From positions 1-45,776 of IMG/VR virus record IMGVR_UViG_3300037247_000151: a DNA stretch of 45,776 nt. The stretch is one strand, 5' to 3'. The position numbers and the translations under genes are program-made. Source of the stretch: a virus. Positions 200 to 45,776 of this stretch are shown here, one piece after another; within the stretch, counting starts at the first letter, position 1, and the number at the start of each line of letters is the position of its first letter. Below the pieces are notes generated by a model, which worked only from the letters and a program-made list of their open reading frames with translations, made no database searches and was not told where the DNA came from.

Positions 200-241
200 G
201 TTGAGCTTCAGCTCAATAATGCGCGCCAGCATCATATCGCC
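200..241 (+). repeat. Intergenic element (IGE) copy
   Basis: GTTGAGCTTCAGCTCAATAATGCGCGCCAGCATCATATCGCC, between the stop at 248 and the SD of the gene starting at 182. Confidence 0.75.
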
Positions 242-577: not shown

Positions 578-985
578 TCAGAACGGCATCTGTTCGTCGT
601 CGAGTGGCTCAAAGTCGCTCTTCTCGTCTTCAAAAAGCTCTGTTTGCTGTGGCTTGTTCTTTGGCGGTTCGCTCATGTGTTCGCCTTTTGGTGTCAAGAA
701 CTCAAAGTCTTCAACGATTAAATCTGTTGTGTATCGCTTGATGCCGTCCTTCTCATAGCTGCCGGTTTGAATGTACCCTGTAATTGCTATCTTATTACCT
801 TTTTTCATGTACTGACCGATTAGTTCTGCTGATTTTCTCCATGCTGTGACAGATATAAAATCGGTTTCGTCTTTTTTAAAAGGTCTTGTGACAGCGACGG
901 TGAACCGGCATACCGATATTCCCGATGCAGTTGTATTGACCTCTGGAGTCTTGCACACATTTCCAATTATAAAACATTTATTCAA
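578..985 (-). CDS. ssb: Single-stranded DNA-binding protein
   Basis: OB-fold N-terminus MNKCFIIGNV...TAWRK and acidic C-terminal tail DDEQMPF. Confidence 0.9.
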   Translation of the reverse strand: MNKCFIIGNVCKTPEVNTTASGISVCRFTVAVTRPFKKDETDFISVTAWRKSAELIGQYMKKGNKIAITGYIQTGSYEKDGIKRYTTDLIVEDFEFLTPKGEHMSEPPKNKPQQTELFEDEKSDFEPLDDEQMPF

Positions 986-1437
986 TTTAAACCCCTCCTT
1001 AAATTGTGGTATGCGGAATGTTCTCCGTGTCCCATAATTTGTAGATTTTCTATTCGGTTGTCTTTCTTGTTCTCGTTAACGTGATGGACTCTCTCTTCGT
1101 CATTTAAAGCTCTTCCCAAGTGATTGCTCATTACAAACCGATGCTCCATAACCAGTCCGTGTTTAGAAGCATTAGGGTGGTTGGGCTTATACAGCATTAT
1201 ATACCCCTTCGGTGTTGTTCTACGGTAGTTCTTGAAATTGCCGGAATTCGCGCCGCTTTGTGCCTTTGATCTGATTTCAAACAAGGATTTTAAGTTTTTT
1301 GATACTTTGAGCCTCGACACCTTGTGCGTTATTGCGCTAAGCGACTTCCCGTTAAAAAACTGAACGATGTCTTTCGCTCTGCGATATGGGTAAAGGAGTT
1401 CTAAAAGACTAACCTCTTCATCTGCCCACGTCTTCAT
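982..1437 (-). CDS. HNH homing-type endonuclease
   Basis: EHRFVM...VHHVNENKKDNRIENLQIMGHGEHSAYH; ATGA overlap with ssb. Confidence 0.85.
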   Translation of the reverse strand: MKTWADEEVSLLELLYPYRRAKDIVQFFNGKSLSAITHKVSRLKVSKNLKSLFEIRSKAQSGANSGNFKNYRRTTPKGYIMLYKPNHPNASKHGLVMEHRFVMSNHLGRALNDEERVHHVNENKKDNRIENLQIMGHGEHSAYHNLRRGLN

Positions 1438-1802
1438 TTTTTATCCTCCCCATTAATCATATTAAGGAAATAACCATAGTTTGGCGTTCCTATAAAATCA
1501 AAATGCACTTGCGTAACGACGGTAGATTCTTTCACATCACCGTAAATGTCGCTCATCACGTCTATCAACTCTTGTCGGTTGGCATACCCTTCAACCTTTG
1601 CGTCGTTATCCGTAACATCAGCAATCGTTTTTTCTTCTAGCGACTTTACGTCAATTAGTACGCAGTTTCTTCCTTTGTCCCCGATTAAAACCGTGTTCCC
1701 AAGAGGGTAGTCTCTTTTGCCTTTTCTTAGAGTGGCAACCTTGATGCCATTGCGCACATCGTCAAACATCATCTCTCTAAGTTCTATGATTATCTTGTTC
1801 AT
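1434..1802 (-). CDS. ASCH-domain protein
   Basis: FDDVRNGIKVATLRKGKRDYPLG...AKVEGYANRQEL pattern typical of ASCH. Confidence 0.55.
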   Translation of the reverse strand: MNKIIIELREMMFDDVRNGIKVATLRKGKRDYPLGNTVLIGDKGRNCVLIDVKSLEEKTIADVTDNDAKVEGYANRQELIDVMSDIYGDVKESTVVTQVHFDFIGTPNYGYFLNMINGEDKK

Positions 1803-2410
1803 TGTGTACCTTCTTTCTTTAGACGCTTGTTGATTTTAGTTACTTCTGTAAGCATTTCTTTTGTTGTCGATTTTATTACGGTTTTTCCAGTACGTTCTAA
1901 ATACTTATTCTCTACTTCATCGACTTCTTTAAACCCCATCTTTGCGTAAGCAGCGTATAGTTTTGTTTCGGCATCTGCCCAATCTTTTTTGTCTTGTTCA
2001 GGATTGAATAGATGCTCTGCGCTAGTTACTTGATCGGGATCGTCGTTTGATGGGACAGCAAAGGTTCTCCACAAAAGATACTTGTATGCGTAGCTTGATG
2101 CTTTACCACTGCCCTTGTCCGTGCCGTCGTGTCCTTGACCGCTTGACATCAAATCTATGAACTCTTCGGGTTTTTCTGTATTCAACAACCGATATGTGTA
2201 GATGCCACGAGTAACTTTTTCAACCTTGGTTTCTTCGACCTTGATTGGAAATAACACTAGCTTATACTCTATTAGTTTCTCTCTAAAGATTTGCGTGGTC
2301 TTCGCTTCCGATAAAAACTTGTACTTCGTAGAGCCGAACTCTGCTTTGCCGTCTTTTTTTAAATGTTCAACTTCGCTCATTATCTTGTGTATCTTCTCGT
2401 ATATGTTCAT
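1799..2410 (-). CDS. ERF-family single-strand annealing protein
   Basis: IMSEVEHLKKDGK...YKFLSEA...GKASSYAYKYLLWRTFAVPSNDDPD matches the ERF pattern; adjacent to ssb. Confidence 0.7.
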   Translation of the reverse strand: MNIYEKIHKIMSEVEHLKKDGKAEFGSTKYKFLSEAKTTQIFREKLIEYKLVLFPIKVEETKVEKVTRGIYTYRLLNTEKPEEFIDLMSSGQGHDGTDKGSGKASSYAYKYLLWRTFAVPSNDDPDQVTSAEHLFNPEQDKKDWADAETKLYAAYAKMGFKEVDEVENKYLERTGKTVIKSTTKEMLTEVTKINKRLKKEGTQ

Positions 2411-2742: not shown

Positions 2743-2783
2743 GTCGCTATTATGCTGACGCTACCTATTTCGCTACGCTCAAC
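2743..2783 (-). repeat. IGE copy
   Basis: Minus strand reads GTTGAGCGTAGCGAAATAGGTAGCGTCAGCATAATAGCGAC. Its TGA is the stop of 2779..3111. Confidence 0.8.
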
Positions 2784-3819: not shown

Positions 3820-3859
3820 GTCGCTTTGATGCTGACGAGCATTATTCGCTACCGCTCAC
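3820..3859 (-). repeat. IGE copy
   Basis: GTGAGCGGTAGCGAATAATGCTCGTCAGCATCAAAGCGAC. Supplies the codons VSGSE and the TAA stop of 3842..4144. Confidence 0.85.
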
Positions 3860-4144
3860 TTTTTCGTATGTCTCGTAGAATATGTCAGCTTTACAAGGAT
3901 AAAATTCGCCCTTAACGCCTTTAAGGATATAATCCCCTTCGCTTACAAGCACTTCGCCCGATAGCGTGTTTATTAATAGCCCTAGTTTGGCAGATACCTT
4001 GTGTTCGATTATCTCGCCTTTATCGTTGAGGTACACACCTTCGACAAATGCTTCTTTTGATACAAAGTCGCAAACTTCATTCCATGTGTCCCATGCAAGT
4101 TTTACCGCCTCGATTACTATTGGTATCTTTCTATATCTTCCCAT
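3842..4144 (-). CDS. Hypothetical protein
   Basis: ORF; 14-nt overlap with the XRE gene. Confidence 0.7.
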   Translation of the reverse strand: MGRYRKIPIVIEAVKLAWDTWNEVCDFVSKEAFVEGVYLNDKGEIIEHKVSAKLGLLINTLSGEVLVSEGDYILKGVKGEFYPCKADIFYETYEKVSGSE

Positions 4145-4367
4145 GCTGTTCTCCTTTCTCTCCGTTCTTTATTGCTTTGTAAAAGTCGTCTAGTGTGATT
4201 CCTAGTTTGTTGGCAAACACCGATGCTCTCTCTAGGCTTATTTTGCGGTGTCCGTTTACCATGTAAGATACGTGCTGTGTAGAACATTCAAGTTCTATTG
4301 CCATTTCTTTTAGCTTTATGTCTCGGTCTTTCATTAGTTCTTTTATCGTTGCGTTGTTGTCTATCAT
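4131..4367 (-). CDS. XRE/Cro-type helix-turn-helix regulator
   Basis: IKLKEMAIELECSTQHVSYMVNGHRKISLERASVFANKLGITLDDF is a classic HTH_3 pattern. Confidence 0.85.
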   Translation of the reverse strand: MIDNNATIKELMKDRDIKLKEMAIELECSTQHVSYMVNGHRKISLERASVFANKLGITLDDFYKAIKNGEKGEQHGKI

Positions 4368-4381: not shown

Positions 4382-4421
4382 TTGCGCTTTGATGTTGACG
4401 CGCTTATTCGCTAACGCTCAC
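4382..4421 (-). repeat. IGE copy
   Basis: GTGAGCGTTAGCGAATAAGCGCGTCAACATCAAAGCGCAA directly 5' of the SD AGAGGAGGAA. Confidence 0.8.
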
Positions 4422-31537: not shown

Positions 31538-31578
31538 GGCGATTTTATGCTGACGTGCATTATCTCGTTTCACTCGAC
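31538..31578 (-). repeat. IGE copy (inverted relative to the downstream plus-strand gene)
   Basis: Plus strand GGCGATTTTATGCTGACGTGCATTATCTCGTTTCACTCGAC. Confidence 0.7.
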
Positions 31579-32023: not shown

Positions 32024-32293
32024 ATGAATAAGTTATATTCAAACTCAGGTGAATTTTTAGGTGTTTCGGAATCGCTGCCCATCATTCGAGCTTTTAGGTG
32101 TGAGCGTTGCGGTTGCTTGATTCGCGAAGAAGATGGTGTCACTTGCCACGGTGGAGAGTGGGTGTGCGACCGCGATACTTGCCGGACTCTTGATTCAATT
32201 ACAAACGAATCATATATCAAACAAGGCGAGTATGAAGCAAAGGCGAGCTTGCGAGTTAATGAGCGTCAGCATAATAGCGACGAAAGGAGATAA
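32024..32293 (+). CDS. Cys-rich mini-protein
   Basis: SD TGGAGGTAAG; CERCGC...CHGGEWVCDRDTC. The 3' end is encoded by an IGE copy. Confidence 0.55.
   Translation: MNKLYSNSGEFLGVSESLPIIRAFRCERCGCLIREEDGVTCHGGEWVCDRDTCRTLDSITNESYIKQGEYEAKASLRVNERQHNSDERR
32242..32281 (+). repeat. IGE copy
   Basis: GGCGAGCTTGCGAGTTAATGAGCGTCAGCATAATAGCGAC then GAAAGGAGA. Confidence 0.8.
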
Positions 32294-32817: not shown

Positions 32818-32857
32818 GGCGAGCTTGCGAGCTAATGCGCGTCAGCATCAAAACGAC
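32818..32857 (+). repeat. IGE copy
   Basis: GGCGAGCTTGCGAGCTAATGCGCGTCAGCATCAAAACGAC then GAAAGGG. Confidence 0.8.
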
Positions 32858-33923: not shown

Positions 33924-33924
33924 T

Positions 33925-34784: not shown

Positions 34785-34825
34785 AGCGATATGACGCTGA
34801 CGGACATTATTTCGCTTTGCTCAAC
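34785..34825 (-). repeat. IGE copy (inverted relative to the downstream plus-strand gene)
   Basis: Plus strand AGCGATATGACGCTGACGGACATTATTTCGCTTTGCTCAAC. Confidence 0.8.
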
Positions 34826-35116: not shown

Positions 35117-35156
35117 GGCGAGTGGAACGAGCTAATGCGCGATTAATCAAAGCGAC
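35117..35156 (+). repeat. IGE copy
   Basis: GGCGAGTGGAACGAGCTAATGCGCGATTAATCAAAGCGAC. Confidence 0.8.
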
Positions 35157-35505: not shown

Positions 35506-35776
35506 AGAGAAAATAGTTTTAATGGAGAAGTATCTACTCAACACTGCGCCAAACAGCGTAGCTATGCAAGAGATACTTCAAGACCTCCGCAAAATAGAAA
35601 GCGGAGAGATGGCTGAGGTTGTTAAATGCGAATGGAATACAGATGGCGAAGAAGACAATGTGCATTGGGTTTGTAGTAGGTGCGGCTATGAAAGTTGGCT
35701 TGATTGGGAAGGTAGCGTTCTTGAAGATATAAAATATTGTTGGAATTGTGGAGCCAAGTTGAGCAACGCGAAATAG
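35495..35776 (+). CDS. Zinc-ribbon protein
   Basis: C-terminal CSRCG...CWNCG; SD AAAGGAGGAG. Confidence 0.65.
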   Translation: MNIKEKIVLMEKYLLNTAPNSVAMQEILQDLRKIESGEMAEVVKCEWNTDGEEDNVHWVCSRCGYESWLDWEGSVLEDIKYCWNCGAKLSNAK

Positions 35777-35797
35777 TGCGCGATTAATCATATCGCT
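35758..35797 (+). repeat. IGE copy overlapping the 3' end of 35495..35776
   Basis: GTTGAGCAACGCGAAATAGTGCGCGATTAATCATATCGCT encodes ...LSNAK plus the stop. Confidence 0.8.
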
Positions 35798-35813: not shown

Positions 35814-36377
35814 ATGAGTGAATTAAAGAAGTGTCCGTTCTGTAATAGTGAAGATAGTGGCGTTTATGATGAGGTGACGGGAAGGGCAACAAAACATTAT
35901 GTCGAGTGTCATTTATGTGGAGCTTCCACTAATTTATTGCCCACAGAAGAAGACGCAATAGCTGCGTGGAACAAAAGAGCAGACGGATGGATAGGTGTAG
36001 AATATCCACCAACAGAACAAAAAGAATATCTCGTAACAGATGGTGAGTTTGTAGTAAGACAAACATTCTTTAATAACAATGCGCATAAAGGATTCATCGA
36101 CGGCGTTATATGCAAAGAAGACATCACTTACTGGCAACCGTTGCCCGATCCAAAAGTGAGTAGAGAGGAAGGGGACAAAATGAAAGCATATAAATGTGAC
36201 TTATGTTTCAAGTATTGTGATGACGTCTTAACTATACATTCAATAGTGAGACCATACTCGCACAGTGTTTACGATGAATTGAATGGGCAAAGTGTAGATT
36301 GTTGTGAAGACTGTTTCGATAAAATCATGGCGTTTATAGAACCAATGATAAAGAAGCGTAAAAGGCGAACAAAGTGA
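35814..36377 (+). CDS. Lar-like restriction-alleviation domain fused to a DUF551-like domain, plus a Cys-rich C-terminal module
   Basis: KKCPFCNSED...VECHLCGAST...EEDAIAAWNKR (Lar pattern); GWIGVEYPP...ITYWQPLPDPK (DUF551 pattern). An in-frame internal SD+ATG (MKAYKCDLC...) is also present. Confidence 0.65.
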   Translation: MSELKKCPFCNSEDSGVYDEVTGRATKHYVECHLCGASTNLLPTEEDAIAAWNKRADGWIGVEYPPTEQKEYLVTDGEFVVRQTFFNNNAHKGFIDGVICKEDITYWQPLPDPKVSREEGDKMKAYKCDLCFKYCDDVLTIHSIVRPYSHSVYDELNGQSVDCCEDCFDKIMAFIEPMIKKRKRRTK

Positions 36378-36403
36378 GCTAATGAGCGATTAATAATAGC
36401 GAA
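36374..36403 (+). repeat. IGE copy (short variant)
   Basis: GTGAGCTAATGAGCGATTAATAATAGCGAA; its TGA is the stop of 35814..36377. Confidence 0.6.
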
Positions 36404-36423: not shown

Positions 36424-36792
36424 GTGCCTTTCCCTCGCCTTGATGCTCATTATTCGCTATCGTTCAATCAACTTATGGACGTTCTTAACAAAGTTTCAAA
36501 GCCGGAGAACAACAACACTATTGTAACAGACCAACTACACGCATACAGCCCGTTAGAGCGTAACAACTACGTGCATCTAAGGATAGACCACCGTCAAGCG
36601 TATTCAGACCACAACGGAACTCATACGAACACTATCGAGAGTTTTTGGGCGACATTAAAGCGTGGTGTGTACGGAATATATCATCATGTATCTGTTAAAT
36701 ATATGCAAAGATATGTTGACGAGTTTTGTTTTAGGTATAATAATCGTGGATTGAATATGTTTGATATGGTTTTGAAACAAGCGATGATATAA
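36424..36792 (+). pseudogene. IS1595 (ISXO2-like) transposase, C-terminal fragment only
   Basis: IVTDQLHAYSPL...HTNTIESFWATLKRGVYGIYHHVSVKYMQRYVDEFCFRYNNR. The N-terminal zinc ribbon and first catalytic Asp are missing. GTG start lies inside a hairpin with no SD. Confidence 0.7.
36434..36469 (-). repeat. Degenerate IGE copy inside the 5' end of the transposase fragment
   Basis: Plus strand CTCGCCTTGATGCTCATTATTCGCTATCGTTCAATC. Confidence 0.5.
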
Positions 36793-37537: not shown

Positions 37538-37577
37538 ATTGAGCTTGCTCAATAATGCGCGTCAGCACCATATCGCC
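37538..37577 (+). repeat. IGE copy (inverted relative to the flanking minus-strand genes)
   Basis: ATTGAGCTTGCTCAATAATGCGCGTCAGCACCATATCGCC. Confidence 0.75.
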
Positions 37578-37578
37578 C

Positions 37579-37680
37579 TCACATAAACCATCTGATGTAG
37601 ATTATCGCTGCCCAAAACGCTGCTATTGTTAGTCCTGCTACCCAACCTTTTTTTCTGCCTTGTTCTATATACCATTTCAT
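37579..37680 (-). CDS. Putative 33-aa membrane peptide (not in ORF track)
   Basis: ATGA overlap with the upstream gene; MKWYIEQGRKKGWVAGLTIAAFWAAIIYIRWFM. Confidence 0.4.
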   Translation of the reverse strand: MKWYIEQGRKKGWVAGLTIAAFWAAIIYIRWFM

Positions 37681-37862
37681 TTTTCTGCCTCCATTCTCTT
37701 TTTAATTTCCTCGCTTGCAACAATAATTATTGGTCGCACGCTTAGCTGTTCCTGTTTGGTTAAATATTCTAGGAATAACCTTTGCCCTAGTATGTACCCC
37801 TTGTGATATCCTTGTTCGTACCCAATTTGCCACTCGCTACTCATTCCCATGTCTGAATACAT
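37677..37862 (-). CDS. Hypothetical protein
   Basis: 61-aa ORF with SD AAGGAGTAAAA. Confidence 0.55.
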   Translation of the reverse strand: MYSDMGMSSEWQIGYEQGYHKGYILGQRLFLEYLTKQEQLSVRPIIIVASEEIKKRMEAEK

Positions 37863-37871
37863 TTTTACTCC

Positions 37872-37911
37872 TTGGCGATATGATTAATCGCTACTTATTC
37901 GCTTTGCTCAC
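37872..37911 (-). repeat. IGE copy
   Basis: GTGAGCAAAGCGAATAAGTAGCGATTAATCATATCGCCAA. Supplies the codons EQSE and the TAA stop of 37895..38092. Confidence 0.8.
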
Positions 37912-38092
37912 TCTGATTCTGCTCGTCGTATTCTTCGTCGGTTGTGATGTGCCCGTAACTCCAGTTGTAATGATAGCCGCACTTGCATTTCACGTCTGTT
38001 TCTACAAGCCCTATTTCATCGTGAAACTTCTCTACCTTGCACTCATCTTCACACCTAGGACAATATGTCGGTGCTTCTTTCCAAAATCTCAT
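37895..38092 (-). CDS. Zinc-ribbon mini-protein with acidic tail
   Basis: CPRCEDEC...CKCG. Confidence 0.6.
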   Translation of the reverse strand: MRFWKEAPTYCPRCEDECKVEKFHDEIGLVETDVKCKCGYHYNWSYGHITTDEEYDEQNQSEQSE

Positions 38093-38210
38093 CTTTTCTC
38101 ACCTTTTTCCCCATTCGTTTCAACAACCTGTAAAATCTGCGGTTGTCGTACTCTGTTATGTCTAAATTCTGAATCTTTGCCCACTTTTTGAAGTTCTTTT
38201 TTGTTTTCAT
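38055..38210 (-). CDS. Putative 51-aa basic protein (not in ORF track)
   Basis: SD AGGAGGTACAAC-ATG; overlaps the next gene by 38 nt. Confidence 0.35.
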   Translation of the reverse strand: MKTKKNFKKWAKIQNLDITEYDNRRFYRLLKRMGKKVRKDEILERSTDILS

Positions 38211-38246
38211 GTTGTACCTCCTGCTTTATAGTATGCAGAAAGTTTT

Positions 38247-38299
38247 AAAAAGATTCCTATTGCATATTATTTTATATAGAATCTTTTGCAATAGGATTC
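38247..38299 (-). terminator. Rho-independent terminator after the radical SAM gene
   Basis: Minus strand GAATCCTATTGCA-22 nt-TGCAATAGGAATC (one mismatch) followed by TTTTT. Confidence 0.55.
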
Positions 38300-38339
38300 G
38301 TCGAGTTGATTAATCGCGCATTATTTCGCTGCGCTCAAC
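38300..38339 (-). repeat. IGE copy
   Basis: GTTGAGCGCAGCGAAATAATGCGCGATTAATCAACTCGAC; its TGA is the stop of the radical SAM gene. Confidence 0.85.
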
Positions 38340-39078
38340 TTTTGTTCATCTCTGCTCTTAATCCTTCTTTGATATAATAGTTAAGCTCGTTCTCTTTGCA
38401 TAGCCTCTCGCACTCTTTACCAAACTCTCCCCAGTTTATTTCTGATGGGTGGTAGTTTAATTTTCCTATTTTGAACTTATCAACATATCCTAAATTGAGA
38501 CGAAGCATGAGGTATATATCTTTTTCATTCAATACGGGTTCCATAGACATCCATGTTCTTATTCCGTGGTCGTGAGCGCGATCCAATACAGCTAAACGAT
38601 TTGCAGGTATAGCCGCAAAGGGTTCTTGTTCGCACGGCAGACACAGCTTTCCACCCCCATATCCTGTGTATGTCACGCCAAACCAATCATTCTCATCGAG
38701 TAAGTCGAAGTCTCTCTCGGAAATTGTACCGCCTTTTGTTAATATCTGTACATGGTTCCCGCTATCCTTAATCAATTTAATGATTTCTCTAGTCGCAGTT
38801 GTGTCTATATCCGCAGGGTAAGGGTCACATGTAAAACAAAGATGTATTAATTTGCCCTTTAATTTTTCCCTTTCGATTTGCTTTTTAACTTCGTTTACAA
38901 TATTTTTCCTCGGCTCGACGTTAGAGTGAAAATCCTCTCGTGTCTTTCTTAACACGCTCGGCGCAAAACAGTACGAGCACCGATGGGTACAGCCTGTGTA
39001 AATGTTAATTGCATAGTCCCCGTATTCTTTAGCTTTCCCGCTAGGCTTGTATATTGGTTTCATCTTCAATTCTCCCAT
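38335..39078 (-). CDS. Radical SAM enzyme (SplB/COG1533-like)
   Basis: CX3CX2C cluster motif in YTGCTHRCSYCFAP near the N-terminus. An alternative SD-supported start is Met6 (39063). Confidence 0.8.
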   Translation of the reverse strand: MGELKMKPIYKPSGKAKEYGDYAINIYTGCTHRCSYCFAPSVLRKTREDFHSNVEPRKNIVNEVKKQIEREKLKGKLIHLCFTCDPYPADIDTTATREIIKLIKDSGNHVQILTKGGTISERDFDLLDENDWFGVTYTGYGGGKLCLPCEQEPFAAIPANRLAVLDRAHDHGIRTWMSMEPVLNEKDIYLMLRLNLGYVDKFKIGKLNYHPSEINWGEFGKECERLCKENELNYYIKEGLRAEMNKS

Positions 39079-39548
39079 CTAAAATATTTTCCATCCTGGT
39101 ATTCTCTTGTAAATAAATTATGTCCTCTCTTGCCGACAAAGTATAGGTAATCTTTCGGTAGCCTGTACTCGTAGATGCCCTCTTGCTCCATCAGCCACGC
39201 TCTCAACACGTTTCTTGCGATTGCCTTGTACTCGTCTGTCGCAGGTGCGTGTCTGTCGTAGGCGAACTGGCTTGAAGCGGTTGCACACTCGATTATGGTG
39301 TTACCACGATGTCCAACGTCTACTCGGTTTAGTACCGTCCATACTACTGCTTCTTTTTGTATTTCCGGGATATGCTCGTAATTTGCTTCTCCGTGTATTA
39401 CTTTTGCTAAGACGATTATTTCTTCTTTGTAGTTTTGTAGTTCTACTGATGCGTTGTAGTATATTTCGTCTCGTGGGTGGATAGCGTAAGCAGTCCCGGG
39501 TAACATCAGCAAGATTAGTACTACCGTTGTGATTAATTTCTTTATCAT
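39066..39548 (-). CDS. Secreted SleB/CwlJ-family (Hydrolase_2) cell-wall hydrolase
   Basis: Signal peptide MIKKLITTVVLILLMLPGTAYA. LAKVIHGEA...QKEAVVWTVLNRV...SSQFAY matches the SleB catalytic-domain pattern. Confidence 0.7.
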   Translation of the reverse strand: MIKKLITTVVLILLMLPGTAYAIHPRDEIYYNASVELQNYKEEIIVLAKVIHGEANYEHIPEIQKEAVVWTVLNRVDVGHRGNTIIECATASSQFAYDRHAPATDEYKAIARNVLRAWLMEQEGIYEYRLPKDYLYFVGKRGHNLFTREYQDGKYFRWEN

Positions 39549-39558
39549 TTGTTCCTCC

Positions 39559-39753
39559 TTAAATTACAAGCAAATCTTTATAAAGGTTTTCATCACATAT
39601 AAACTTTATAGACCCTAATTCAAGTGACCGCCCTTGTTCTTCAATTAGTTTGGCGTTAAGTTTCTTAACGGCTTGTGTAGGTCCTTCTGCTATTACATAT
39701 GCTTCTCTTGTCGTTACCCTTGTTTGCTCTGTGATTTTATATAGATTCATCAT
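39559..39753 (-). CDS. Hypothetical protein
   Basis: 64-aa ORF. Confidence 0.5.
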   Translation of the reverse strand: MMNLYKITEQTRVTTREAYVIAEGPTQAVKKLNAKLIEEQGRSLELGSIKFICDENLYKDLLVI

Positions 39754-40093
39754 ACACCTCGAACTTCGTTCCGTTGTAGCGGTAGAGCTGTCTCATAACT
39801 ATGCATTCGTCGCCGATGTAACAAAATGCGCCTCCGTGCGTTGTGCTTACGCTTTCCGAGAATAGATCGACCTTCTGCTGTTCCTCTATCGGCAACCCTG
39901 AGATTATCTCAAAGCCTGTCATTTCCGTACCTTTTGAAACCTCAAATCCGACCTCTACTGCCGCTAACCGAGCCATTGCGTTAACTAAATCTTCTTTACT
40001 TTCATAAATATCTAGCCTCACCCACGCTTCGTGTACCTTTTTCATTTCATCAAACTCTTCTTTTAGTAACCTCGCGCATTTTATCTGTTCCAT
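39737..40093 (-). CDS. Hypothetical protein
   Basis: 118-aa ORF with SD AAGGAGAAG. Confidence 0.6.
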   Translation of the reverse strand: MEQIKCARLLKEEFDEMKKVHEAWVRLDIYESKEDLVNAMARLAAVEVGFEVSKGTEMTGFEIISGLPIEEQQKVDLFSESVSTTHGGAFCYIGDECIVMRQLYRYNGTKFEVYDESI

Positions 40094-40111
40094 ATTACTT
40101 CTCCTTATCTC

Positions 40112-40369
40112 CTAATATTCTTTGTCGCCGATTTTATTGCTCACTAGGTCAGCTTCAAATTCCTCTTGCTCGATTGCATCAAGTTTTTGCGGTGTTAAAT
40201 CGCTTACTTCGTTGTCGAGTGCTTCTTTGATTACCTCTATGTCGTGTTGGTGTATCCATTTACCTTGTTTTTCTAGTTCGTCTATTATTTCATTGATTTT
40301 GTTGCCCATTGCTCCATCTCCATATACTGGGCTCTTTCCAAAAAGTGATTTCCTTTCTACCTTCTTCAT
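40112..40369 (-). CDS. Hypothetical protein
   Basis: 85-aa ORF with SD GGGAGGTATAAGA. Confidence 0.6.
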   Translation of the reverse strand: MKKVERKSLFGKSPVYGDGAMGNKINEIIDELEKQGKWIHQHDIEVIKEALDNEVSDLTPQKLDAIEQEEFEADLVSNKIGDKEY

Positions 40370-40389
40370 TCTTATACCTCCCTTTTTTT

Positions 40390-40429
40390 ATCGAGTTGAT
40401 TAATCGAGCATTATTTCGCTACGCTCACC
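40390..40429 (-). repeat. IGE copy
   Basis: GGTGAGCGTAGCGAAATAATGCTCGATTAATCAACTCGAT; its TGA is the stop of 40425..40721. Confidence 0.85.
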
Positions 40430-40721
40430 TTTCCAAAATTCCAATTTCTTTTGATACTCCCATGTATTTCTTCACTTTTTCTATTTTGTCGTTGTAAATA
40501 GCAGGGTCAATATGGCTGCGGAAAATCGTTGCACTATCCGAAAGCATGTACCTTATTGCATCAATATCAAGAAGTTCTTTATTGAGTTCCGCTTGGTTGT
40601 TAATGTTTGGTCTGTTTGGATGATGGTTTTTCAACCCAAATCGCAAGCATTTTGTAGCGACTTTTTGCACCTCCGCACATTCCTCGATTAAACATATCAA
40701 CAAATATTCTGTTCTGTCCAT
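40425..40721 (-). CDS. MazG-like NTP pyrophosphohydrolase (small all-alpha)
   Basis: LIEECAEVQKVATKCLRFG and ELLDIDAIRYM fit the EExxE...K..R...E..D pattern. SD AAAGGAGAACACT-ATG at 40721. Confidence 0.45.
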   Translation of the reverse strand: MDRTEYLLICLIEECAEVQKVATKCLRFGLKNHHPNRPNINNQAELNKELLDIDAIRYMLSDSATIFRSHIDPAIYNDKIEKVKKYMGVSKEIGILER

Positions 40722-40735
40722 AGTGTTCTCCTTTC

Positions 40736-40778
40736 GTTGAGCCAACGGCGAAATAATGCACGTCAGCATCGTATCGCC
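40736..40778 (+). repeat. IGE copy (inverted relative to the flanking genes)
   Basis: GTTGAGCCAACGGCGAAATAATGCACGTCAGCATCGTATCGCC. Confidence 0.8.
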
Positions 40779-40780
40779 TC

Positions 40781-41035
40781 TTACTCCTTTGGCATTTCAT
40801 AAAAATACCTGCCCGTGTTACTCGGTTTGTCTCGCCATTCCCAACTTTCCGCTGCTTCTCTTATCTCTGCCATAACCTGTAATGCACGTTCTTTTGATTT
40901 GTAGTAGCCGATTGTTATTGTCGATAATTCATCAAGAACAGGTCTTATCCCTACCCCCTCATATTCTTCATCGTATAAAATCATGTAGTTATCATAATTA
41001 ATATCTACCTCTTTATCTTGGCTTACTATTCTCAT
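40781..41035 (-). CDS. Hypothetical protein (84 aa)
   Basis: SD AAAGGAGAAAGAACA and ATGA overlap with the dnaC-like stop. Confidence 0.55.
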   Translation of the reverse strand: MRIVSQDKEVDINYDNYMILYDEEYEGVGIRPVLDELSTITIGYYKSKERALQVMAEIREAAESWEWRDKPSNTGRYFYEMPKE

Positions 41036-41736
41036 TGTTCTTTCTCCTTTCCGTCGGTTGGTTTGTTCCATCGCCAGTCTTTGTCTTGATATTGTACCCA
41101 TTCGCACATTTCGCCAAGTCTGCTGACGACAGCGTTTCCATATTTCTTTTTTAGCTGTTTGCCGTTTAGGTTTGTTGTGATGACGATGCCTTTGTTTTGT
41201 TCGTACAGCTTGTTCACCAGATCAAACACAAAAACCTTAACGTCGTCTTCCTTGTAACCAAACTTAAACTCTTTGCCCAAGTCGTCTATACAAACGAAGT
41301 CGCTGTCACAAGGGTCGTTGCGTTTCATAAGCTGTGTGACCGTTCCATACACCACATACTTGCCCTGCGTTGTGAGGTCGTTAGTCAAAGCAGCGATGAG
41401 GTGGGTCTTGCCGATTCCGTTGTCGCCGGATATTAAAACACCTTTAGACTTTTCTAAGATAACCCTTCGACATGCCATGTATGCTTTTTCGTTGTTGTCG
41501 TTTACATCAAAAGAATCGAATGTTCTGTTGAAGAACTTTTCTCCTAGACCACTTTGCTCTAGCAAATACTTAGCGTGTTTGTACCTGTCTCTTATATTTG
41601 AATCTTTAATAATTTGTTGTTGCTTTAGTTCGTGCTGTTTCTCGTATTCCTCAATACCAATTTCCTCTATTTTGGTTTGAACACGAATGTCTGCTTCTTG
41701 CAGTTTCAAGCCAAACCCATAATTTAATAAATCCAT
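41032..41736 (-). CDS. DnaC/IstB-like AAA+ helicase loader
   Basis: Walker A LISGDNGIGKTHL and Walker B DFVCIDDLGKE. Confidence 0.85.
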   Translation of the reverse strand: MDLLNYGFGLKLQEADIRVQTKIEEIGIEEYEKQHELKQQQIIKDSNIRDRYKHAKYLLEQSGLGEKFFNRTFDSFDVNDNNEKAYMACRRVILEKSKGVLISGDNGIGKTHLIAALTNDLTTQGKYVVYGTVTQLMKRNDPCDSDFVCIDDLGKEFKFGYKEDDVKVFVFDLVNKLYEQNKGIVITTNLNGKQLKKKYGNAVVSRLGEMCEWVQYQDKDWRWNKPTDGKEKEQ

Positions 41737-41749
41737 TTTTCACCTCTAA

Positions 41750-41802
41750 GTTACTAGTAACACGTACTTACCTAACCTATACTATACTAACCTATACTAA
41801 CC
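41750..41802. repeat. 12-bp palindrome plus TATACTAACC iterons (origin/regulatory candidate)
   Basis: GTTACTAGTAAC (41750-41761). CTAACC-TATAC-TATACTAACC-TATACTAACC (41772-41802). Confidence 0.6.
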
Positions 41803-41820
41803 TGTGTTGACGAACTGTAA

Positions 41821-42162
41821 TCATTTTGTATACATTTTGTTAACATCTAGTGTGAGTTGCTTGATTTCTTCTGTATACATCGTGTCGTTTCGTCTATCTT
41901 TTGCTATCAAATTATGTACAAACCAGTGTCGGATAACACACACTCCTGTATCAAAATCTATGATGTATTTGTTTTGGATAAGTAGTTCATAATCAGCCTT
42001 TTTTGCTTTTACCATAGCCATTACTTTTTTGCGTTTGTCCATGAACCCATCGTCGTCAGATCGTAAAACAAGATGCATATATAAACCTTGCGCTGATAAA
42101 GGCATATTTAAGAAAAGGTCAGTATCTATTACTTTTAAACTTAACATTCGTCTTTGTGCCAT
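41821..42162 (-). CDS. Replication initiator / replisome-organizer-like protein
   Basis: VIDTDLFLNMPLSAQGLYMHLVLRSDDDGFM...IRHWFVHNLIAKDRRNDT resembles phage replication initiator N-domains; directly upstream of the dnaC-like gene. Confidence 0.5.
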   Translation of the reverse strand: MAQRRMLSLKVIDTDLFLNMPLSAQGLYMHLVLRSDDDGFMDKRKKVMAMVKAKKADYELLIQNKYIIDFDTGVCVIRHWFVHNLIAKDRRNDTMYTEEIKQLTLDVNKMYTK

Positions 42163-42165
42163 GCT

Positions 42166-42327
42166 CTATTCCTTTCCTAAAAGCCTGTCTATTTCCTCTT
42201 GTGTGATTCGCCAGCAGTGACCTATCTTATTTCCTTTAATTGCGTTCTCTTGTAGTAACTTCGTTGCCGTTGGTCGTGATATTCTTAACTCTTTGCAAAG
42301 TTCGTTCATTGTGTATAGTTTTCCCAT
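42166..42327 (-). CDS. Excisionase-type (HTH_17/MerR-like) DNA-binding protein (53 aa, not in ORF track)
   Basis: SD AAAGGAGAA; MGKLYTMNELCKELRISRPTATKLLQENAIKGNKIGHCWRITQEEIDRLL. Confidence 0.6.
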   Translation of the reverse strand: MGKLYTMNELCKELRISRPTATKLLQENAIKGNKIGHCWRITQEEIDRLLGKE

Positions 42328-42345
42328 GAAATTCTCCTTTCTTAC

Positions 42346-42374
42346 ATTTTACAACTTTTGTTGTGCCTTGTCAA
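42346..42374 (-). promoter_or_regulatory. Sigma-A-type promoter
   Basis: Minus strand TTGACA-17 nt-TAAAAT, preceded by the shared upstream box (42375-42403). Confidence 0.75.
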
Positions 42375-42405
42375 TACCATAAAACTCTAAAACTCCTACA
42401 AAACT

Positions 42406-42753
42406 TCAAATTTCATCAGCAGGTGCGTTAAGCCAGTTAACGTCTGTGTCGTAGTCGTTTACCGAGCCTCCTATTTCTATGAACGTGGCGTAGTTTTGTG
42501 CTGACATTTTTGCGATCTGTTCTTTACGCATGTCTAGGTTTGTTTTTACTGGGTGTTCTTCTGCCCATTTGATAAGAACTTGCTCGTGCTTTTCTGGGTC
42601 GTCTGGGATTTTATAATAAACGTTTATGTTTGTTTTGTTTATTCTTTCGTGTATGCCTACTGATTCTAGGTATGTTATATGTTTCATGTTTTCTCCTTCT
42701 AATTGTGGATGCCTTCTGTTCCACTCTTCTGTTACCCTTTCAGCTAAACTCAT
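42406..42753 (-). CDS. Hypothetical protein
   Basis: 115-aa ORF with SD GAAAGGAGAACAAT. Confidence 0.6.
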   Translation of the reverse strand: MSLAERVTEEWNRRHPQLEGENMKHITYLESVGIHERINKTNINVYYKIPDDPEKHEQVLIKWAEEHPVKTNLDMRKEQIAKMSAQNYATFIEIGGSVNDYDTDVNWLNAPADEI

Positions 42754-42767
42754 ATTGTTCTCCTTTC

Positions 42768-42807
42768 GTCGCTTTGATTAATCGCGCATTATTTCGCTTT
42801 GCTCAAC
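42768..42807 (-). repeat. IGE copy (closest to consensus)
   Basis: GTTGAGCAAAGCGAAATAATGCGCGATTAATCAAAGCGAC immediately followed by GAAAGGAGAACAAT-ATG. Confidence 0.9.
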
Positions 42808-42812
42808 CTGCG

Positions 42813-43007
42813 TTAATCATAATCTATTCCAATTACCTTAGATGTATTTCCGCAATCCTCGCAGACTACGTCTACTCCATAATTCCTCATACTTTCATAG
42901 TCAAAAGCGTCAACCTTTAAGTGATTTTCAGAAAAACAATATGGACAAGTGTATTGATAGCCTACAATCTTTGTTTTCCCATAAATCTCTATCTCTTTAA
43001 TCTCCAT
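42813..43007 (-). CDS. Zinc-ribbon mini-protein (64 aa)
   Basis: CPYC...CEDCG. SD GAAAGGAATGATACG-ATG at 43007; the track start lies inside the IGE. Confidence 0.6.
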   Translation of the reverse strand: MEIKEIEIYGKTKIVGYQYTCPYCFSENHLKVDAFDYESMRNYGVDVVCEDCGNTSKVIGIDYD

Positions 43008-43022
43008 CGTATCATTCCTTTC

Positions 43023-43064
43023 GTTGAGCCTTGGCGAAATAATGCTCGATTCCTTCAAATCGCC
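43023..43064 (+). repeat. IGE copy (inverted relative to the flanking genes)
   Basis: GTTGAGCCTTGGCGAAATAATGCTCGATTCCTTCAAATCGCC. Confidence 0.75.
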
Positions 43065-43065
43065 T

Positions 43066-43425
43066 TTATATCTCTGTTATAGTAACAGTCACTTCGTTTT
43101 CGTCGCCTAGTTCAAAATCGTCTGTGAAGCCTGTAACGTGCTTCCATCCGTCACCTTGCAGGACTCCCGCTTTGACTAACCCATCCAAAATATATTTTTT
43201 AGCGAACGCTATGTTGTCCGGGTCTCTCATGCGGTTAGTCTCACGCCATAGGAAGCCGATACGAGCCTTTTTAGCAGGCTTAAGGTGTTGTGACTTAGCT
43301 TCCCATGTTACGAGGTCTGTGAGCATTCTCTTATCTGCTGCCGATGCGTACTTATTACCTCTTGCGGTGTCTGTATAATCGTTAAGAGTTGGGAATTTAT
43401 ACAGCAATACAAACGTTTGTGTCAT
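43066..43425 (-). CDS. rusA: RusA-family Holliday junction resolvase
   Basis: RMRDPDNIAFAKKYILDGLVKAGVLQGDGWKHV matches the RusA core. SD GAAAGGGGAAAC-ATG at 43425. Confidence 0.75.
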   Translation of the reverse strand: MTQTFVLLYKFPTLNDYTDTARGNKYASAADKRMLTDLVTWEAKSQHLKPAKKARIGFLWRETNRMRDPDNIAFAKKYILDGLVKAGVLQGDGWKHVTGFTDDFELGDENEVTVTITEI

Positions 43426-43435
43426 GTTTCCCCTT

Positions 43436-43558
43436 TCATTCTCCGTCATCCTCTAAGTGATCGCAGTCTATCTCGTCTTCATCAGGATGATAGTCGCCTA
43501 TCTCGCAGACTAAGCATCTTCCCCTGTCTGTTCCTTCGTCAAATAATTTACAAAACAT
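43436..43558 (-). CDS. Putative 40-aa acidic Cys-containing protein (not in ORF track)
   Basis: SD GCGGAGGATTGAT-ATG; MFCKLFDEGTDRGRCLVCEIGDYHPDEDEIDCDHLEDDGE. Confidence 0.4.
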   Translation of the reverse strand: MFCKLFDEGTDRGRCLVCEIGDYHPDEDEIDCDHLEDDGE

Positions 43559-43603
43559 ATCAATCCTCCGCTTCTTCTAGCCTTTTTGTTATGATGCTGT
43601 CTT

Positions 43604-43774
43604 TCATTGCTGTACAAAATCCTGATACTGTTTACTAATTTTTTGCAATAGATCGGTGTATGTCCTTTCACCTTGATGAGTCTTAAACATATCATCAGAG
43701 CTGGTTTGAGCGCACCGCAAACCGAATATAACCATTGCTAATTCTGTTTCGTCTATCGTAACTGTTATTTTCAT
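43604..43774 (-). CDS. Putative 56-aa protein (not in ORF track)
   Basis: SD GGGAGGAGAATAGA-ATG; MKITVTIDETELAMVIFGLRCAQ... Confidence 0.45.
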   Translation of the reverse strand: MKITVTIDETELAMVIFGLRCAQTSSDDMFKTHQGERTYTDLLQKISKQYQDFVQQ

Positions 43775-43775
43775 T

Positions 43776-43877
43776 CTATTCTCCTCCCTCTTCTTCTAGT
43801 GTGTCGTGTTTCTCTTCCTTTTCTTCTTCCTCGTATGGTTCGTCCATTGGTGGGGAGTTGTTTCTCCAGTCTTCCAT
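43776..43877 (-). CDS. Putative 33-aa highly acidic protein (not in ORF track)
   Basis: SD AAGGAGGGAAAC-ATG directly after an IGE; MEDWRNNSPPMDEPYEEEEKEEKHDTLEEEGGE. Confidence 0.4.
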   Translation of the reverse strand: MEDWRNNSPPMDEPYEEEEKEEKHDTLEEEGGE

Positions 43878-43889
43878 GTTTCCCTCCTT

Positions 43890-43928
43890 GTCGCTATTAT
43901 TAATCGCGCATTATTCGCTTACGCTCAC
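43890..43928 (-). repeat. IGE copy
   Basis: GTGAGCGTAAGCGAATAATGCGCGATTAATAATAGCGAC. Supplies the codons VSVSE and the TAA stop of the YopX gene. Confidence 0.85.
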
Positions 43929-44393
43929 TACTTCAACTTCGCAGGTGTTTGACATTGCTTTTGCTACTGTGCCGTAATTAGGAATGTACTCCCCTTCTTC
44001 AAAGTCCATGTAGGTGTCTAGGGCTATCCTTGTTCCGTTCCTTCTTTTAACCACGAAGCTACCATAAAAATATTCAATAACACCTTGGCTGTCGTGGTCT
44101 AAGTCTTCTGTCTTTTTTCCAAAAGGCGTTATGTAATAAGGGACAACGCTATCGCCCTCAAATATTTTTGTGTTGTTTTTGCTTTTTAGTTTTGTGTATT
44201 GATTGACGGTTTCGGGGTCTACTTCCCATGTTACAAGTCTTAGACAACCCTCCTCGCCTACTCTTTCGCTTTCGTCTGCACAGCTATCAAGTGGGAATAT
44301 ATACGCTTTCCCACTCATTCCGCACAAAATATAATACCCATTCACCCACTCGCCGTTGTCTATCCGCTTACCTCTGAATAATATATCTCTCAT
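43911..44393 (-). CDS. YopX-family protein
   Basis: N-terminal MRDILFRGKRIDNGEWVNGYY is the YopX hallmark. Confidence 0.8.
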   Translation of the reverse strand: MRDILFRGKRIDNGEWVNGYYILCGMSGKAYIFPLDSCADESERVGEEGCLRLVTWEVDPETVNQYTKLKSKNNTKIFEGDSVVPYYITPFGKKTEDLDHDSQGVIEYFYGSFVVKRRNGTRIALDTYMDFEEGEYIPNYGTVAKAMSNTCEVEVVSVSE

Positions 44394-44394
44394 A

Positions 44395-44811
44395 TCAATC
44401 TCCTATTTCTTCTTCGATCTCTTCTATTTCCCAAACTCCGCTTGTTCTTTCACCAAGCAGAGTCCACGTTGTCTCTACTCTTTTTCTTGATGTGTACTTT
44501 TTTGCTTTATCTTTAGTTGTGTAGCAAGCAAAAGTTTCGCCGTGGCTGATGTATGTTTTGCCTTCGTAATATCCTCCACCGACCTCTTCGTCTTTCAATA
44601 CAAAACTTTTTACTAGATGTGTTTTGAACATTACATCGTATTTGTTTGGAACGTGTGTCTTTGCGTAGTCTAGCATTTGCTGTTCTGTTTCTTGCCGTTG
44701 TTGTAGTGATGATTCGTTTGTGCATTGTGCAGATAGGTGTTTATACGCTGCGCAACCGGTTAGTTCTGTTGTGTGTTCCCATGCGCAGTCTTTACATGTT
44801 GCTGCTTTCAT
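44395..44811 (-). CDS. Hypothetical protein
   Basis: 138-aa ORF, tightly packed between the neighbouring genes. Confidence 0.6.
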   Translation of the reverse strand: MKAATCKDCAWEHTTELTGCAAYKHLSAQCTNESSLQQRQETEQQMLDYAKTHVPNKYDVMFKTHLVKSFVLKDEEVGGGYYEGKTYISHGETFACYTTKDKAKKYTSRKRVETTWTLLGERTSGVWEIEEIEEEIGD

Positions 44812-44823
44812 TTCTTCTCTCCT

Positions 44824-45342
44824 TTAAATATTTAACAGTGCAATCTCTTGAAGTGTCTTTGTTTCGATGCCTAGGTCTTTTGCTTCGTATACAATGCCCT
44901 CGATAAACCGGTTCATTTGTTTGGTGTCAAAATCCGAAGAGCCATAGAATATTTGCAGTTGCACCCCTGCTTTGCCCTCAACCTGCATATCGTTTAACTC
45001 TCTAGCATACTGATGGTTTCGTCTACATTGAGATTGAAAGTATGCAACAGCTTCTTTTGGCATGATGTAATGAGTAAACTTATCGCTGTATTGCATTAGC
45101 ATAGACTCGTATACCTCATCGTTCGACGTTTTCATTACCTTAGCAATTTTGCCGATCAGAAGCCAAGCATAATTGTTTTGGCTTAAAGTCTTCTTAGGGC
45201 GTTCCTGCTTGATTTCTACCGTGTATGGATACTTTGCTCCTTCTTGCTCGTTGATTAGGTCTATGACCGCCTGAGAGAGCGAGAGAGGTATAAAAAGCAT
45301 GTCTCCGTGTATCTGTATTGTTCCTGTTACTTTTGTCTTCAT
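44824..45342 (-). CDS. NinB/Orf-like recombination mediator (family also annotated as putative HNHc nuclease)
   Basis: EIKQERPKKTLSQNNYAWLLIGKIA parallels lambda NinB ERNRSLDQNRKLWACLGDV. GSSDFDTKQMNRFIEGI parallels the NinB C-terminal motif. Confidence 0.5.
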   Translation of the reverse strand: MKTKVTGTIQIHGDMLFIPLSLSQAVIDLINEQEGAKYPYTVEIKQERPKKTLSQNNYAWLLIGKIAKVMKTSNDEVYESMLMQYSDKFTHYIMPKEAVAYFQSQCRRNHQYARELNDMQVEGKAGVQLQIFYGSSDFDTKQMNRFIEGIVYEAKDLGIETKTLQEIALLNI

Positions 45343-45362
45343 AACCTACCTCCTTAATTATT

Positions 45363-45392
45363 GTCGAGTTGATGCTGACGAGCATTAACTCT
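45363..45392 (-). repeat. Partial IGE copy
   Basis: ...TTAATGCTCGTCAGCATCAACTCGAC. The left arm is replaced by the 3' end of 45385..; its TAA is that gene's stop. Confidence 0.6.
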
Positions 45393-45776
45393 CTGCGTTC
45401 GCCTTAATAAAATCTAGAGCTTCGCTTAAATAGAGTTTGTATCTTTCTTTTGCTCTAGCTTTCTGCTCGTTTAGGTGATATTCTGCTCTTTTGATTGCTT
45501 CTGCATCTTTAGCTTTCGATTCCTCCGCATATTTTCTAATTTCGCTTATTATGTAATCTTTGTCTTTCTCTAAATGCAGAAACCTTGTAGAACTAGACCA
45601 ACTAAATGGAGTTCCTCCATCTTGATGAAAAACCATATACTCGTTGCTCCCCGAAGCAAGCCCTTGCTCTATCGCAGATTTATAGCGGCTGTTAGGCGTG
45701 TAGGGGGAGAAGTATTTATCGTTTGCTTCTCTTACCGTGTTGACTCCCATCTTTTCTTTGCGCCAATAGTGATTGA
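45385..45776 (-). CDS. Hypothetical protein, 5'-truncated by the window edge (full gene is 148 aa across the junction)
   Basis: ORF continues upstream into the terminal repeat. The true ATG corresponds to position 182 of the other copy. Confidence 0.7.
   Translation of the reverse strand, partial: NHYWRKEKMGVNTVREANDKYFSPYTPNSRYKSAIEQGLASGSNEYMVFHQDGGTPFSWSSSTRFLHLEKDKDYIISEIRKYAEESKAKDAEAIKRAEYHLNEQKARAKERYKLYLSEALDFIKANAES
45650..45776. repeat. Terminal direct repeat, identical to 1..127
   Basis: Exact 127-bp identity with the window start. Confidence 0.95.

Follow-up and report, generated by a model that had tools for sequence, protein, structure and literature searches.

The window analysed here is the whole of IMG/VR virus record IMGVR_UViG_3300037247_000151, a stretch of 45,776 nucleotides of phage DNA, and the subject of this report is a ~40-bp intergenic element that recurs at the borders of its early and accessory genes. 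The phage genome was assembled as a circle whose unit measures 45,649 bp, with a G+C content of 40.9%; since its ends are duplicated exactly over 127 bp (1–127 = 45650–45776), the contig is either circular or terminally redundant. The late block occupied 26 kb of the minus strand, from ~31.1 to 5.1 kb. A long early operon, also on the minus strand, started from a canonical promoter at 4807–4779 (TTGACA-17-TGnTAGAAT, with a terminator upstream at 4868–4844), ran through position 1 and continued from 45.6 to 37.3 kb. It comprised XRE/Cro, ERF, ASCH, HNH, SSB, YopX-like, HTH_17, DnaC-like loader and radical-SAM genes. Two accessory operons were located on the plus strand at 31.2–33.5 and 34.8–36.8 kb, with a small minus-strand island between them.

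Searches with megablast and blastn against 50,697 deposited phage records found no nucleotide-level relative, and the only match was a 74-nt coding one. The large terminase (TerL) was at most 35% identical to those of isolated phages, ~54% identical to those on metagenomic contigs and 50% identical to that of a Vallitalea (Clostridia) prophage. The Shine-Dalgarno (SD) sites were strong and of the GAAAGGAG type. Together with a Pistol self-cleaving ribozyme and a skipping-rope RNA (Table 1), they fit a Firmicutes-type host, and the phage would be a Firmicutes-type siphovirus.

Twenty-one copies of the element were confirmed in this genome. They were recovered independently by a repeat finder, as families D1, D2, D6–D12 and I1–I12. 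An nhmmer profile run on the circular unit genome returned exactly 21 copies at 13.6–36.5 bits, with the next best match at 7.3 bits and the best match in 30 first-order Markov shuffles at 10.6 bits. The hidden Markov model (HMM) was trained on the same 21 copies, so the real evidence is the clean score gap together with the independent repeat families. Relative to the downstream gene, 14 copies were co-oriented (F class, GTTGAGC...GCGAC) and seven were inverted (R class). The HMM scan placed no copy in 4422–31537 and none inside 248–2410. Because the assembly is circular, the copies at 200 and 45363 are neighbours. The original prediction, read from the sequence alone, had listed 21 copies, a 14 to 7 split in orientation and no copy in the structural and lysis block or in the recombination module at 248–2410, and all of this held, as did the motif being commoner than in shuffled sequence. 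Most of its coordinates were also correct; two copies proved longer than listed, namely 36365–36403 instead of 36374–36403 and 45363–45402 instead of 45363–45392, and the span 37538–45392 that it gave for the 21 copies holds only nine of them.

Table 1. Copies of the 40-bp element and other features of the window. Block types are given in the order left/centre/right end; scores are nhmmer bits.
Feature	Position	Strand	Class	Blocks	Score	Remarks
Copy 1	200..241	+	R	L4/B/R2	35.7	inverted relative to minus-strand transcription; between 248-571 and the 148-aa junction gene
Copy 2	2743..2783	-	F	L1/B/R1	31.6	upstream ORF 2779-3111 ends at TGA of GTTGAGC
Copy 3	3820..3859	-	F	L2/B/R1	33.9	encodes tail VSGSE* of ORF 3842-4144
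Copy 4	4382..4421	-	F	L2/B/R1	27.9	directly upstream of XRE/Cro-like gene 4131-4367
Copy 5	31538..31578	-	R	L3/B/R2	32.8	in plus-strand operon
Copy 6	32242..32281	+	F	L3/B/R1	32.2	ORF 32024-32293 reads through whole copy, tail ASLRVNERQHNSDERR*
Copy 7	32818..32857	+	F	L3/B/R1	33.2	extended flanks common with copy 6 (64 nt, 81%; family D7)
Copy 8	34785..34825	-	R	L1/B/R2	34.3	divergent region between minus-strand island and plus-strand operon from 34847
Copy 9	35117..35156	+	F	L3/A/R1	27.6	
Copy 10	35758..35797	+	F	L1/A/R2	33.5	encodes tail KLSNAK* of ORF 35495-35776
Copy 11	36365..36403	+	F	L3/A/R1	20.0	holds stop of Lar-like gene; followed by hairpin 36410-36429
Copy 12	36434..36469	-	R		13.6	degenerate, central 6 nt missing; abuts 5'-truncated DDE_Tnp_IS1595 ORF
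Copy 13	37538..37577	+	R	L4/B/R2	32.9	closest relative is copy 1 (88%)
Copy 14	37872..37911	-	F	L2/A/R2	21.5	
Copy 15	38300..38339	-	F	L1/A/R3	35.9	radical-SAM gene ends at TGA of GTTGAGC; followed by terminator-like hairpin 38299-38252 and U5
Copy 16	40390..40429	-	F	L1/A/R3	34.9	
Copy 17	40736..40778	+	R	L1/B/R2	32.2	best hairpin of the family, GGCGA...TCGCC, -15.1 kcal/mol
Copy 18	42768..42807	-	F	L1/A/R1	36.5	nearest to consensus: GTTGAGCAAAGCGAAATAATGCGCGATTAATCAAAGCGAC
Copy 19	43023..43064	+	R	L1/atypical centre/R2	31.2	
Copy 20	43890..43928	-	F	L2/A/R1	30.1	overlaps 3' end of YopX-like gene
Copy 21	45363..45402	-	F	L3/B/R3	27.3	encodes tail ANAES* of 148-aa wrap-around gene
148-aa gene across circular junction	complement(join 45385..45649, 1..182)	-				
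ERF/ASCH/HNH/SSB module	578..2410	-				ERF 1799-2410, SSB 578-985; Pfam ERF 1.8e-10, SSB 6.6e-29, HNH_3 4.4e-08, ASCH 7.7e-12
XRE/Cro-type HTH protein	4131..4367	-				Pfam HTH_3 9.9e-08; putative candidate binder
HTH_17 (Xis/MerR-like) 53-aa protein	42166..42327	-				Pfam HTH_17 1.4e-09; putative candidate binder
Skipping-rope RNA	4959-5069	-				Rfam RF02924, 59.1 bits; between end of late/lysis block and early-operon terminator and promoter
Pistol self-cleaving ribozyme	31930-31999	+				Rfam RF02679, 58.4 bits; between genes 31595-31930 and 32024-32293

The copies followed the gene borders of one part of the genome only. On a curated gene list, 18 of the 24 early or accessory spacers of at least 25 nt contained a copy, compared with none of the nine late spacers (Fisher P = 1.3e-4). 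Among the six empty early spacers, one had a canonical sigmaA promoter (42374–42346) and one the Pistol ribozyme. In either orientation, the outer end of the element lay 0–3 nt from the SD site of the next gene, whose ATG followed 7–23 nt past the element in most copies. The upstream open reading frame (ORF) stopped inside the element in about ten copies, at the TGA of GTTGAGC in three and at the TAA or TAG of AATAATG in seven, and it stopped at most 10 nt before the element in six further copies. The spacers were filled from stop codon to SD site, as originally described. Because upstream ORFs end inside the element, several proteins have element-encoded tails. The tightly overlapped recombination and replication modules were flanked by elements and were not interrupted by them.

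The mean pairwise identity of the copies was 61%, and the total information was ~46 bits. The differences were concentrated in certain columns, leaving the invariant or near-invariant positions GA..TA..CG..AT.A..CG. Five columns were invariant and eight near-invariant, where an even spread of the differences would yield 0.07 and 0.58 (P < 5e-5), and the variance of differences per column was 14.8 against 3.8 under an even spread. The fixed positions (GA, TA, CG, AT.A and CG) fell in three or four GCGA-like boxes, with A/T-rich sequence between them. Conservation tied in this way to particular positions points to the signature of a recognition site, rather than to an insertion in decay or a stretch serving as homology alone.

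In sequence, the F and R copies form two separate subfamilies. The nearest neighbour of 19 of the 21 copies belonged to the same orientation class (permutation P = 0.001). The right end of the R copies was ATCGCC, and almost all of them had a TCAGCAT centre; the F copies ended in AGCGAC or CTCGAC and had either centre. Within the copies, four left, two centre (five bases and an indel apart) and three right-end block types occurred in almost every combination, four-gamete violations were found for each pair of blocks, and copy-to-copy identity was independent of genomic distance (rho = 0.004). Since such multi-base blocks are unlikely to arise by recurrent mutation, exchange among the copies with breakpoints inside the element is suggested, and the copies have probably swapped sequence within the 40 bp.

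Beyond this genome, the element was sought in several collections. It was seen in none of the deposited phages. Scans of IMG/VR with exact and degenerate patterns gave 0, 0, 14 and 7 matches, all of them single partial chance matches. One subtype pattern was scanned through 185,579 GTDB species genomes and yielded 71 single matches across unrelated phyla with no second copy at any locus; by our estimate, ~70 would be expected by chance (17 fixed bases in 596 Gb). There was no multi-copy locus among the 92 loci from the GTDB and IMG/VR pattern scans. A metagenome scan with a loose pattern returned single chance matches only, among the matches listed. The nearest relatives had DnaC-like proteins that were 51–55% identical and TerL proteins that were 44–54% identical, and neither the element nor, with the repeat finder, a comparable dispersed family was found in their contigs. 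Just one further contig encoded the proteins of this phage, and it was 100% identical to the window. The element family is lineage-specific within the collections searched, as far as tested.

Cassette boundary and regulatory site were the two best explanations for the element, and the evidence supports a combination of both. We tentatively favour the reading that it is an array of duplex-DNA recognition sites for a regulator at early module boundaries and also a recombination substrate. This reading starts from properties that were computed directly: the distribution, the position-specific conservation, the mosaicism and the lack of features of a promoter, terminator or hairpin. A duplex recognition site of ~40 bp would stand at almost every non-overlapping early or accessory gene junction, and a sequence-specific DNA-binding protein would read its invariant positions. 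Action on duplex DNA would fit both the two orientations and the lack of a consensus RNA structure. The binder would act jointly on all early and accessory operons, perhaps shutting them off or standing as a roadblock (the direction of control is our supposition), and would leave the late block untouched. It would most likely be phage-encoded, with the XRE protein, the HTH_17 protein and the paralogous pair 3111–3803 and 2779–3111 as candidates. Because the same 40 bp recurs at module boundaries, the element would also offer short homology for exchange. Single-strand annealing proteins act on ~40-bp homologies, as in Red/RecET recombineering, and the ERF and SSB proteins, whose genes lie in the same operon, would be the obvious machinery because such proteins use homologies of this length. 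Annealing by ERF and SSB would exchange sequence between copies and shuffle gene modules, as the promoter-early stem-loops (PeSLs) do in T4-type phages.

Several points weigh against this reading. No test connected the element with any of the candidate binders. At a spacing of 12–13 bp the boxes are out of helical phase, and the difference in sequence between F and R copies is not required of a purely symmetric duplex site. The block mosaicism could in principle reflect a few allowed variants per sub-site and not recombination. No element-bearing relative was present among the contigs searched, which left no cross-phage conservation or breakpoints to compare. In addition, the plus-strand operon at 34847 has no recognisable sigmaA promoter upstream, where only copy 8 is found, and this leaves room for a promoter role of that copy.

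Five other explanations were weighed. The element may be a pure cassette-boundary linker with no regulatory role, persisting as a portable ~40-bp homology through which co-infecting relatives swap accessory genes. The mosaic nature of the copies would agree with this, as would their position exactly at gene borders, which upstream ORFs enter in any frame, their confinement to accessory and early regions of a phage with ERF and SSB, the 5'-truncated transposase-domain ORF that ends at degenerate copy 12, and the flanks that copies 6 and 7 have in common beyond the element. Homology alone, however, leaves the sharp position-specific conservation unexplained; seven inverted copies in one replicon would favour lethal inversions, most copy pairs would be poor substrates at 61% mean identity, and no relative that shows exchange was found among the contigs searched. 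A linker of this kind is rather unlikely. Quite unlikely, too, is that the F copies are phage-specific promoters, read by a host RNA polymerase that a phage factor redirects, with TTGAGC as a -35-like and NNNNAT as a -10-like sequence and one start per module. Most dispersed conserved intergenic repeats of phages have proved to be promoters (halovirus HF2, PMC8707807; PeSLs, PMC2839356), the element ends just before the SD site, every copy keeps the G and A of TTGAGC and the AT of ATTAAT/CAGCAT, and the operon from 34847 has no visible sigmaA promoter. But only two of the 21 copies passed a sigma-70 consensus scan, each with a -35 derived from the flank, and promoter-like matches were not enriched (46 vs 37.5 ± 6.5); promoters of the canonical TTGACA-17-TATAAT form do occur at other places in the genome. 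Between the two boxes there would be 18–19 nt, and the key -11 A is absent in the ATTAAT type; one third of the copies point against transcription, the copy at 38300 would fire straight into a terminator, and Pfam searches of the phage proteins brought up neither a sigma factor nor an RNA polymerase. A signal at the RNA level, that is, an mRNA processing or stability site, has a similarly small chance. The R hairpin upstream of the SD site would then be a 5' stabiliser or nuclease site, the F copies would be single-stranded nuclease sites, and early transcripts would be cut to cistrons. The six good R copies have a common 12-pair hairpin (-9.85 kcal/mol) that includes a G-U pair restricted to the transcribed strand, each orientation class is a sequence subfamily of its own, and a comparable spacer holds the Pistol ribozyme, which would cleave the polycistronic accessory transcript. 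Against this, no pair of the hairpin showed a compensatory change, its covariation term was unfavourable and it had no T tract. RNAalifold gave 0 pairs for all 21 copies and 0 for the 14 F copies, the F class was unstructured and single-copy folds were no more stable than shuffles (mean z ~-0.8). The two classes would yield complementary, unrelated RNAs, yet they have the same invariant DNA positions.

It is very improbable that the element is a selfish miniature element, like a miniature inverted-repeat transposable element (MITE) or a repetitive extragenic palindromic (REP) sequence, which spread within the genome and was possibly mobilised by an IS1595-type transposase that is now a fragment. 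It is high-copy, lineage-specific, absent from the sampled relatives and present in both orientations, and the DDE_Tnp_IS1595 fragment adjoins a back-to-back pair of copies. However, an apparent excess of target-site duplications (P = 0.0025) was gone when the flanks were permuted within each class (P = 0.20), exact 4-nt flank duplications occurred at two of the 21 copies, and no clear terminal inverted repeats were found in the element. The Pfam searches yielded neither a recombinase nor a transposase that is intact or of the tyrosine type. The empty late spacers, the lack of a multi-copy locus among the 92 loci and a position-specific conservation that is not expected of decaying insertions also argue against it. 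The remaining explanation makes the element a cis site of gene-cassette exchange: a phage protein would nick or pair at the invariant positions and ERF and SSB would swap modules from stop to SD, an integron-like system without an integrase in which F and R are the two polarities. We give it little probability.

Parts of the original prediction can be judged from these tests. Its view that the element is not a simple promoter was upheld for sigma-70-type promoters. It had also rejected a terminator, rightly: the element has no T tract, and none was called by the terminator scan. The term imperfect-palindromic suits the six well-preserved R copies and does not suit the whole family or the 14 F copies, which have no consensus pairing. 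Orientation independence was correct in that both orientations occur and overstated in that the R copies are a separate subfamily; because this subfamily has its own ATCGCC end and hairpin potential, orientation-specific roles are conceivable. Genuine terminator-like hairpins adjoined two copies, outside the elements, at 36410–36429 and 38299–38252. The latter, on the minus strand, had 12 pairs and an internal branched loop followed by UUUUU, and its 110-nt region folded at -25.5 kcal/mol (z = -3.8); it was missed by the consensus terminator scan because its loop is long. Rfam 15 at the gathering threshold gave no match to the element, and its only matches in the window, the skipping-rope RNA and the Pistol ribozyme, were both outside the elements.

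Among described systems, the element appears closest in behaviour to the PeSLs and the Cluster O repeats, and on the features compared it belongs to neither. PeSLs are short cassettes that run from the upstream stop to the SD site in T4-type phages and have subclasses; most are found in plastic early regions rich in ORFans, few in the structural core, and genes are shuffled when copies recombine (PMC2839356, PMC4122927). Their defining parts are a sigma-70 promoter close to consensus and a stem-loop terminator, and every one of them points with transcription (PMC2839356, PMC4122927). The element likewise runs from stop to SD in plastic, ORFan-rich regions and has subclasses. In contrast, a third of its copies are inverted, and it falls outside the PeSLs because it has neither a sigma-70 promoter nor a stem-loop. 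The Cluster O repeats of mycobacteriophages comprise more than 30 dispersed 17-bp copies that are enriched in the non-structural operon and whose orientation carries no meaning. No function is known for them; binding of a regulator was proposed, and gene insertions and deletions are accounted for by recombination from copy to copy (PMC4351075). Each Cluster O copy consists of the same perfect pair of 7-bp arms, inverted around a 3-bp spacer (TGTTCGGNNNCCGAACA), and one copy in three lies inside a gene (PMC4351075). The element differs in its ~40 bp of other sequence, its mean identity of 61% and its constant position at gene borders; it has no dyad consensus, and it lies outside Cluster O because it lacks the invariant 7-bp dyad.

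Two further phage systems are less similar. The stoperators of Cluster A mycobacteriophages are repressor sites that occur in many copies through operons, often in short gaps, and act on elongation and not on initiation (PMC6550527, PMC9283540). They are 12–14 bp long, asymmetric and mostly in one orientation relative to transcription (PMC6550527), and they occur in both genome arms and are tied to the immunity repressor. The element is three times longer, is split 14:7 in orientation and is confined to early regions. Halovirus HF2 has two classes of intergenic repeats, of 29 and 58 bp, whose position is conserved within the virus genus and which were experimentally shown to be archaeal promoters (PMC8707807). 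Unlike them, the element has no bacterial promoter consensus and includes inverted copies.

REP sequences and bacterial interspersed mosaic elements (BIMEs) are 20–40 bp long, intergenic, present in both orientations and sometimes back to back; they form stable hairpins, are host-chromosomal and are mobilised by REP-associated tyrosine transposases (RAYTs). The element has no consensus hairpin, gave no sign in bacterial genomes with the one pattern scanned, and is accompanied by no RAYT among the phage proteins searched. The start-associated sequence of Cluster K is a 13-bp motif at the translation start and ribosome-binding site, in one orientation. The element also abuts the SD site, but it is 40 bp long, excludes the SD itself and is found in either orientation. 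MITEs have terminal inverted repeats and target-site duplications, whereas the flanks of the element were no more similar than permuted flanks within each class. The attC sites, used by the integron integrase, have RYYYAAC ... GTTRRRY cores at both ends, are at least 57 bp long and act as a folded bottom strand; the element is 40 bp long with a core at one end only, and no tyrosine recombinase was found. The integron core site GTTRRRY was not enriched (104 vs 103.8), and GTTGAGC fits it at that one end. RNase III sites of the T7 type are long (~20 bp), irregular hairpins co-oriented with transcription, while the element forms at most 12 pairs, in six copies only.

None of the analogues weighed in the original prediction (REP, MITE, stoperator, start-associated sequence and T7 RNase III hairpin) fits on these features, as it had said. 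Its suggestion of a possibly undescribed system stands in that no described family in Rfam or the collections searched matched, and needs qualifying in that the PeSLs, Cluster O repeats and HF2 repeats are close published analogues. Unusual in the element are its 40-bp length, its presence in three quarters of the early spacers, its two orientation-linked subfamilies and its lack of promoter and terminator content. To our knowledge, only a handful of dispersed gene-border repeats proposed for phage mosaicism have been described (PeSLs, Cluster O repeats and lambdoid boundary sequences), and few other concrete features of sequence have been put forward to explain it. The element is an unusually clean case, combining a recognition signature with exchange between copies and free of the promoter and terminator content that complicates the PeSLs. 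With a binding protein in hand, the element would mark out a new regulator acting on early genes globally; proof of exchange at the sites would be direct evidence of linker-mediated module shuffling by a phage annealing protein.

Other known sites were also compared with the element. DnaA boxes and parS do not account for it, and no cre, Fur, LexA or CIRCE box, ops, boxA antitermination or Chi site was conserved across the copies by eye. Only one of 32 Spo0A 0A boxes lay inside an element. In the whole window, the Spo0A-box motif TGNCGAA showed a modest excess (32 vs 21 ± 3.2 in shuffles).

Among the genes near the elements, the adjacent minus-strand genes 2779–3111 and 3111–3803 have a paralogous C-terminus, KEMTV(A/E)(E/Q)IS(E/K)(K/E)LGY(E/D)VKVVK (75 nt, 76% identity), with element copies on either side of the pair. 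No Pfam match was found for them, and the common stretch looks like part of a helix-turn-helix. The plus-strand ORF 36475–36792 aligned only to positions 76–153 of the 153-position DDE_Tnp_IS1595 family (Pfam, 2.9e-25); it has no SD site and starts at a degenerate copy, and it would be a remnant truncated at the 5' end or else one of the short phage proteins of family phrog_13752. The HMM gave no element-like match 3' of this ORF. Neither a CI-like repressor nor an integrase was found among the phage proteins, where only the small XRE and HTH_17 proteins were present. Gene 43066–43425, guessed by eye to be RusA-like, had no Pfam support.

The minus-strand gene island within the accessory block extended over 33590–34700 and had a promoter-like TTGCAA-17-TATAAT at 34695–34667. 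Two distant terminase relatives, L227 (2559–2602) and L229 (5167–5208), had three tandem 11-bp iterons in or next to replication genes. These iterons are probable replication origins, and no such array was found in the window. Three tandem 48-nt repeats (63–75% identity) were located at 17337–17480 on the minus strand, inside a 212-aa structural gene (17334–17972), and therefore encode a 16-residue repeat in the protein.

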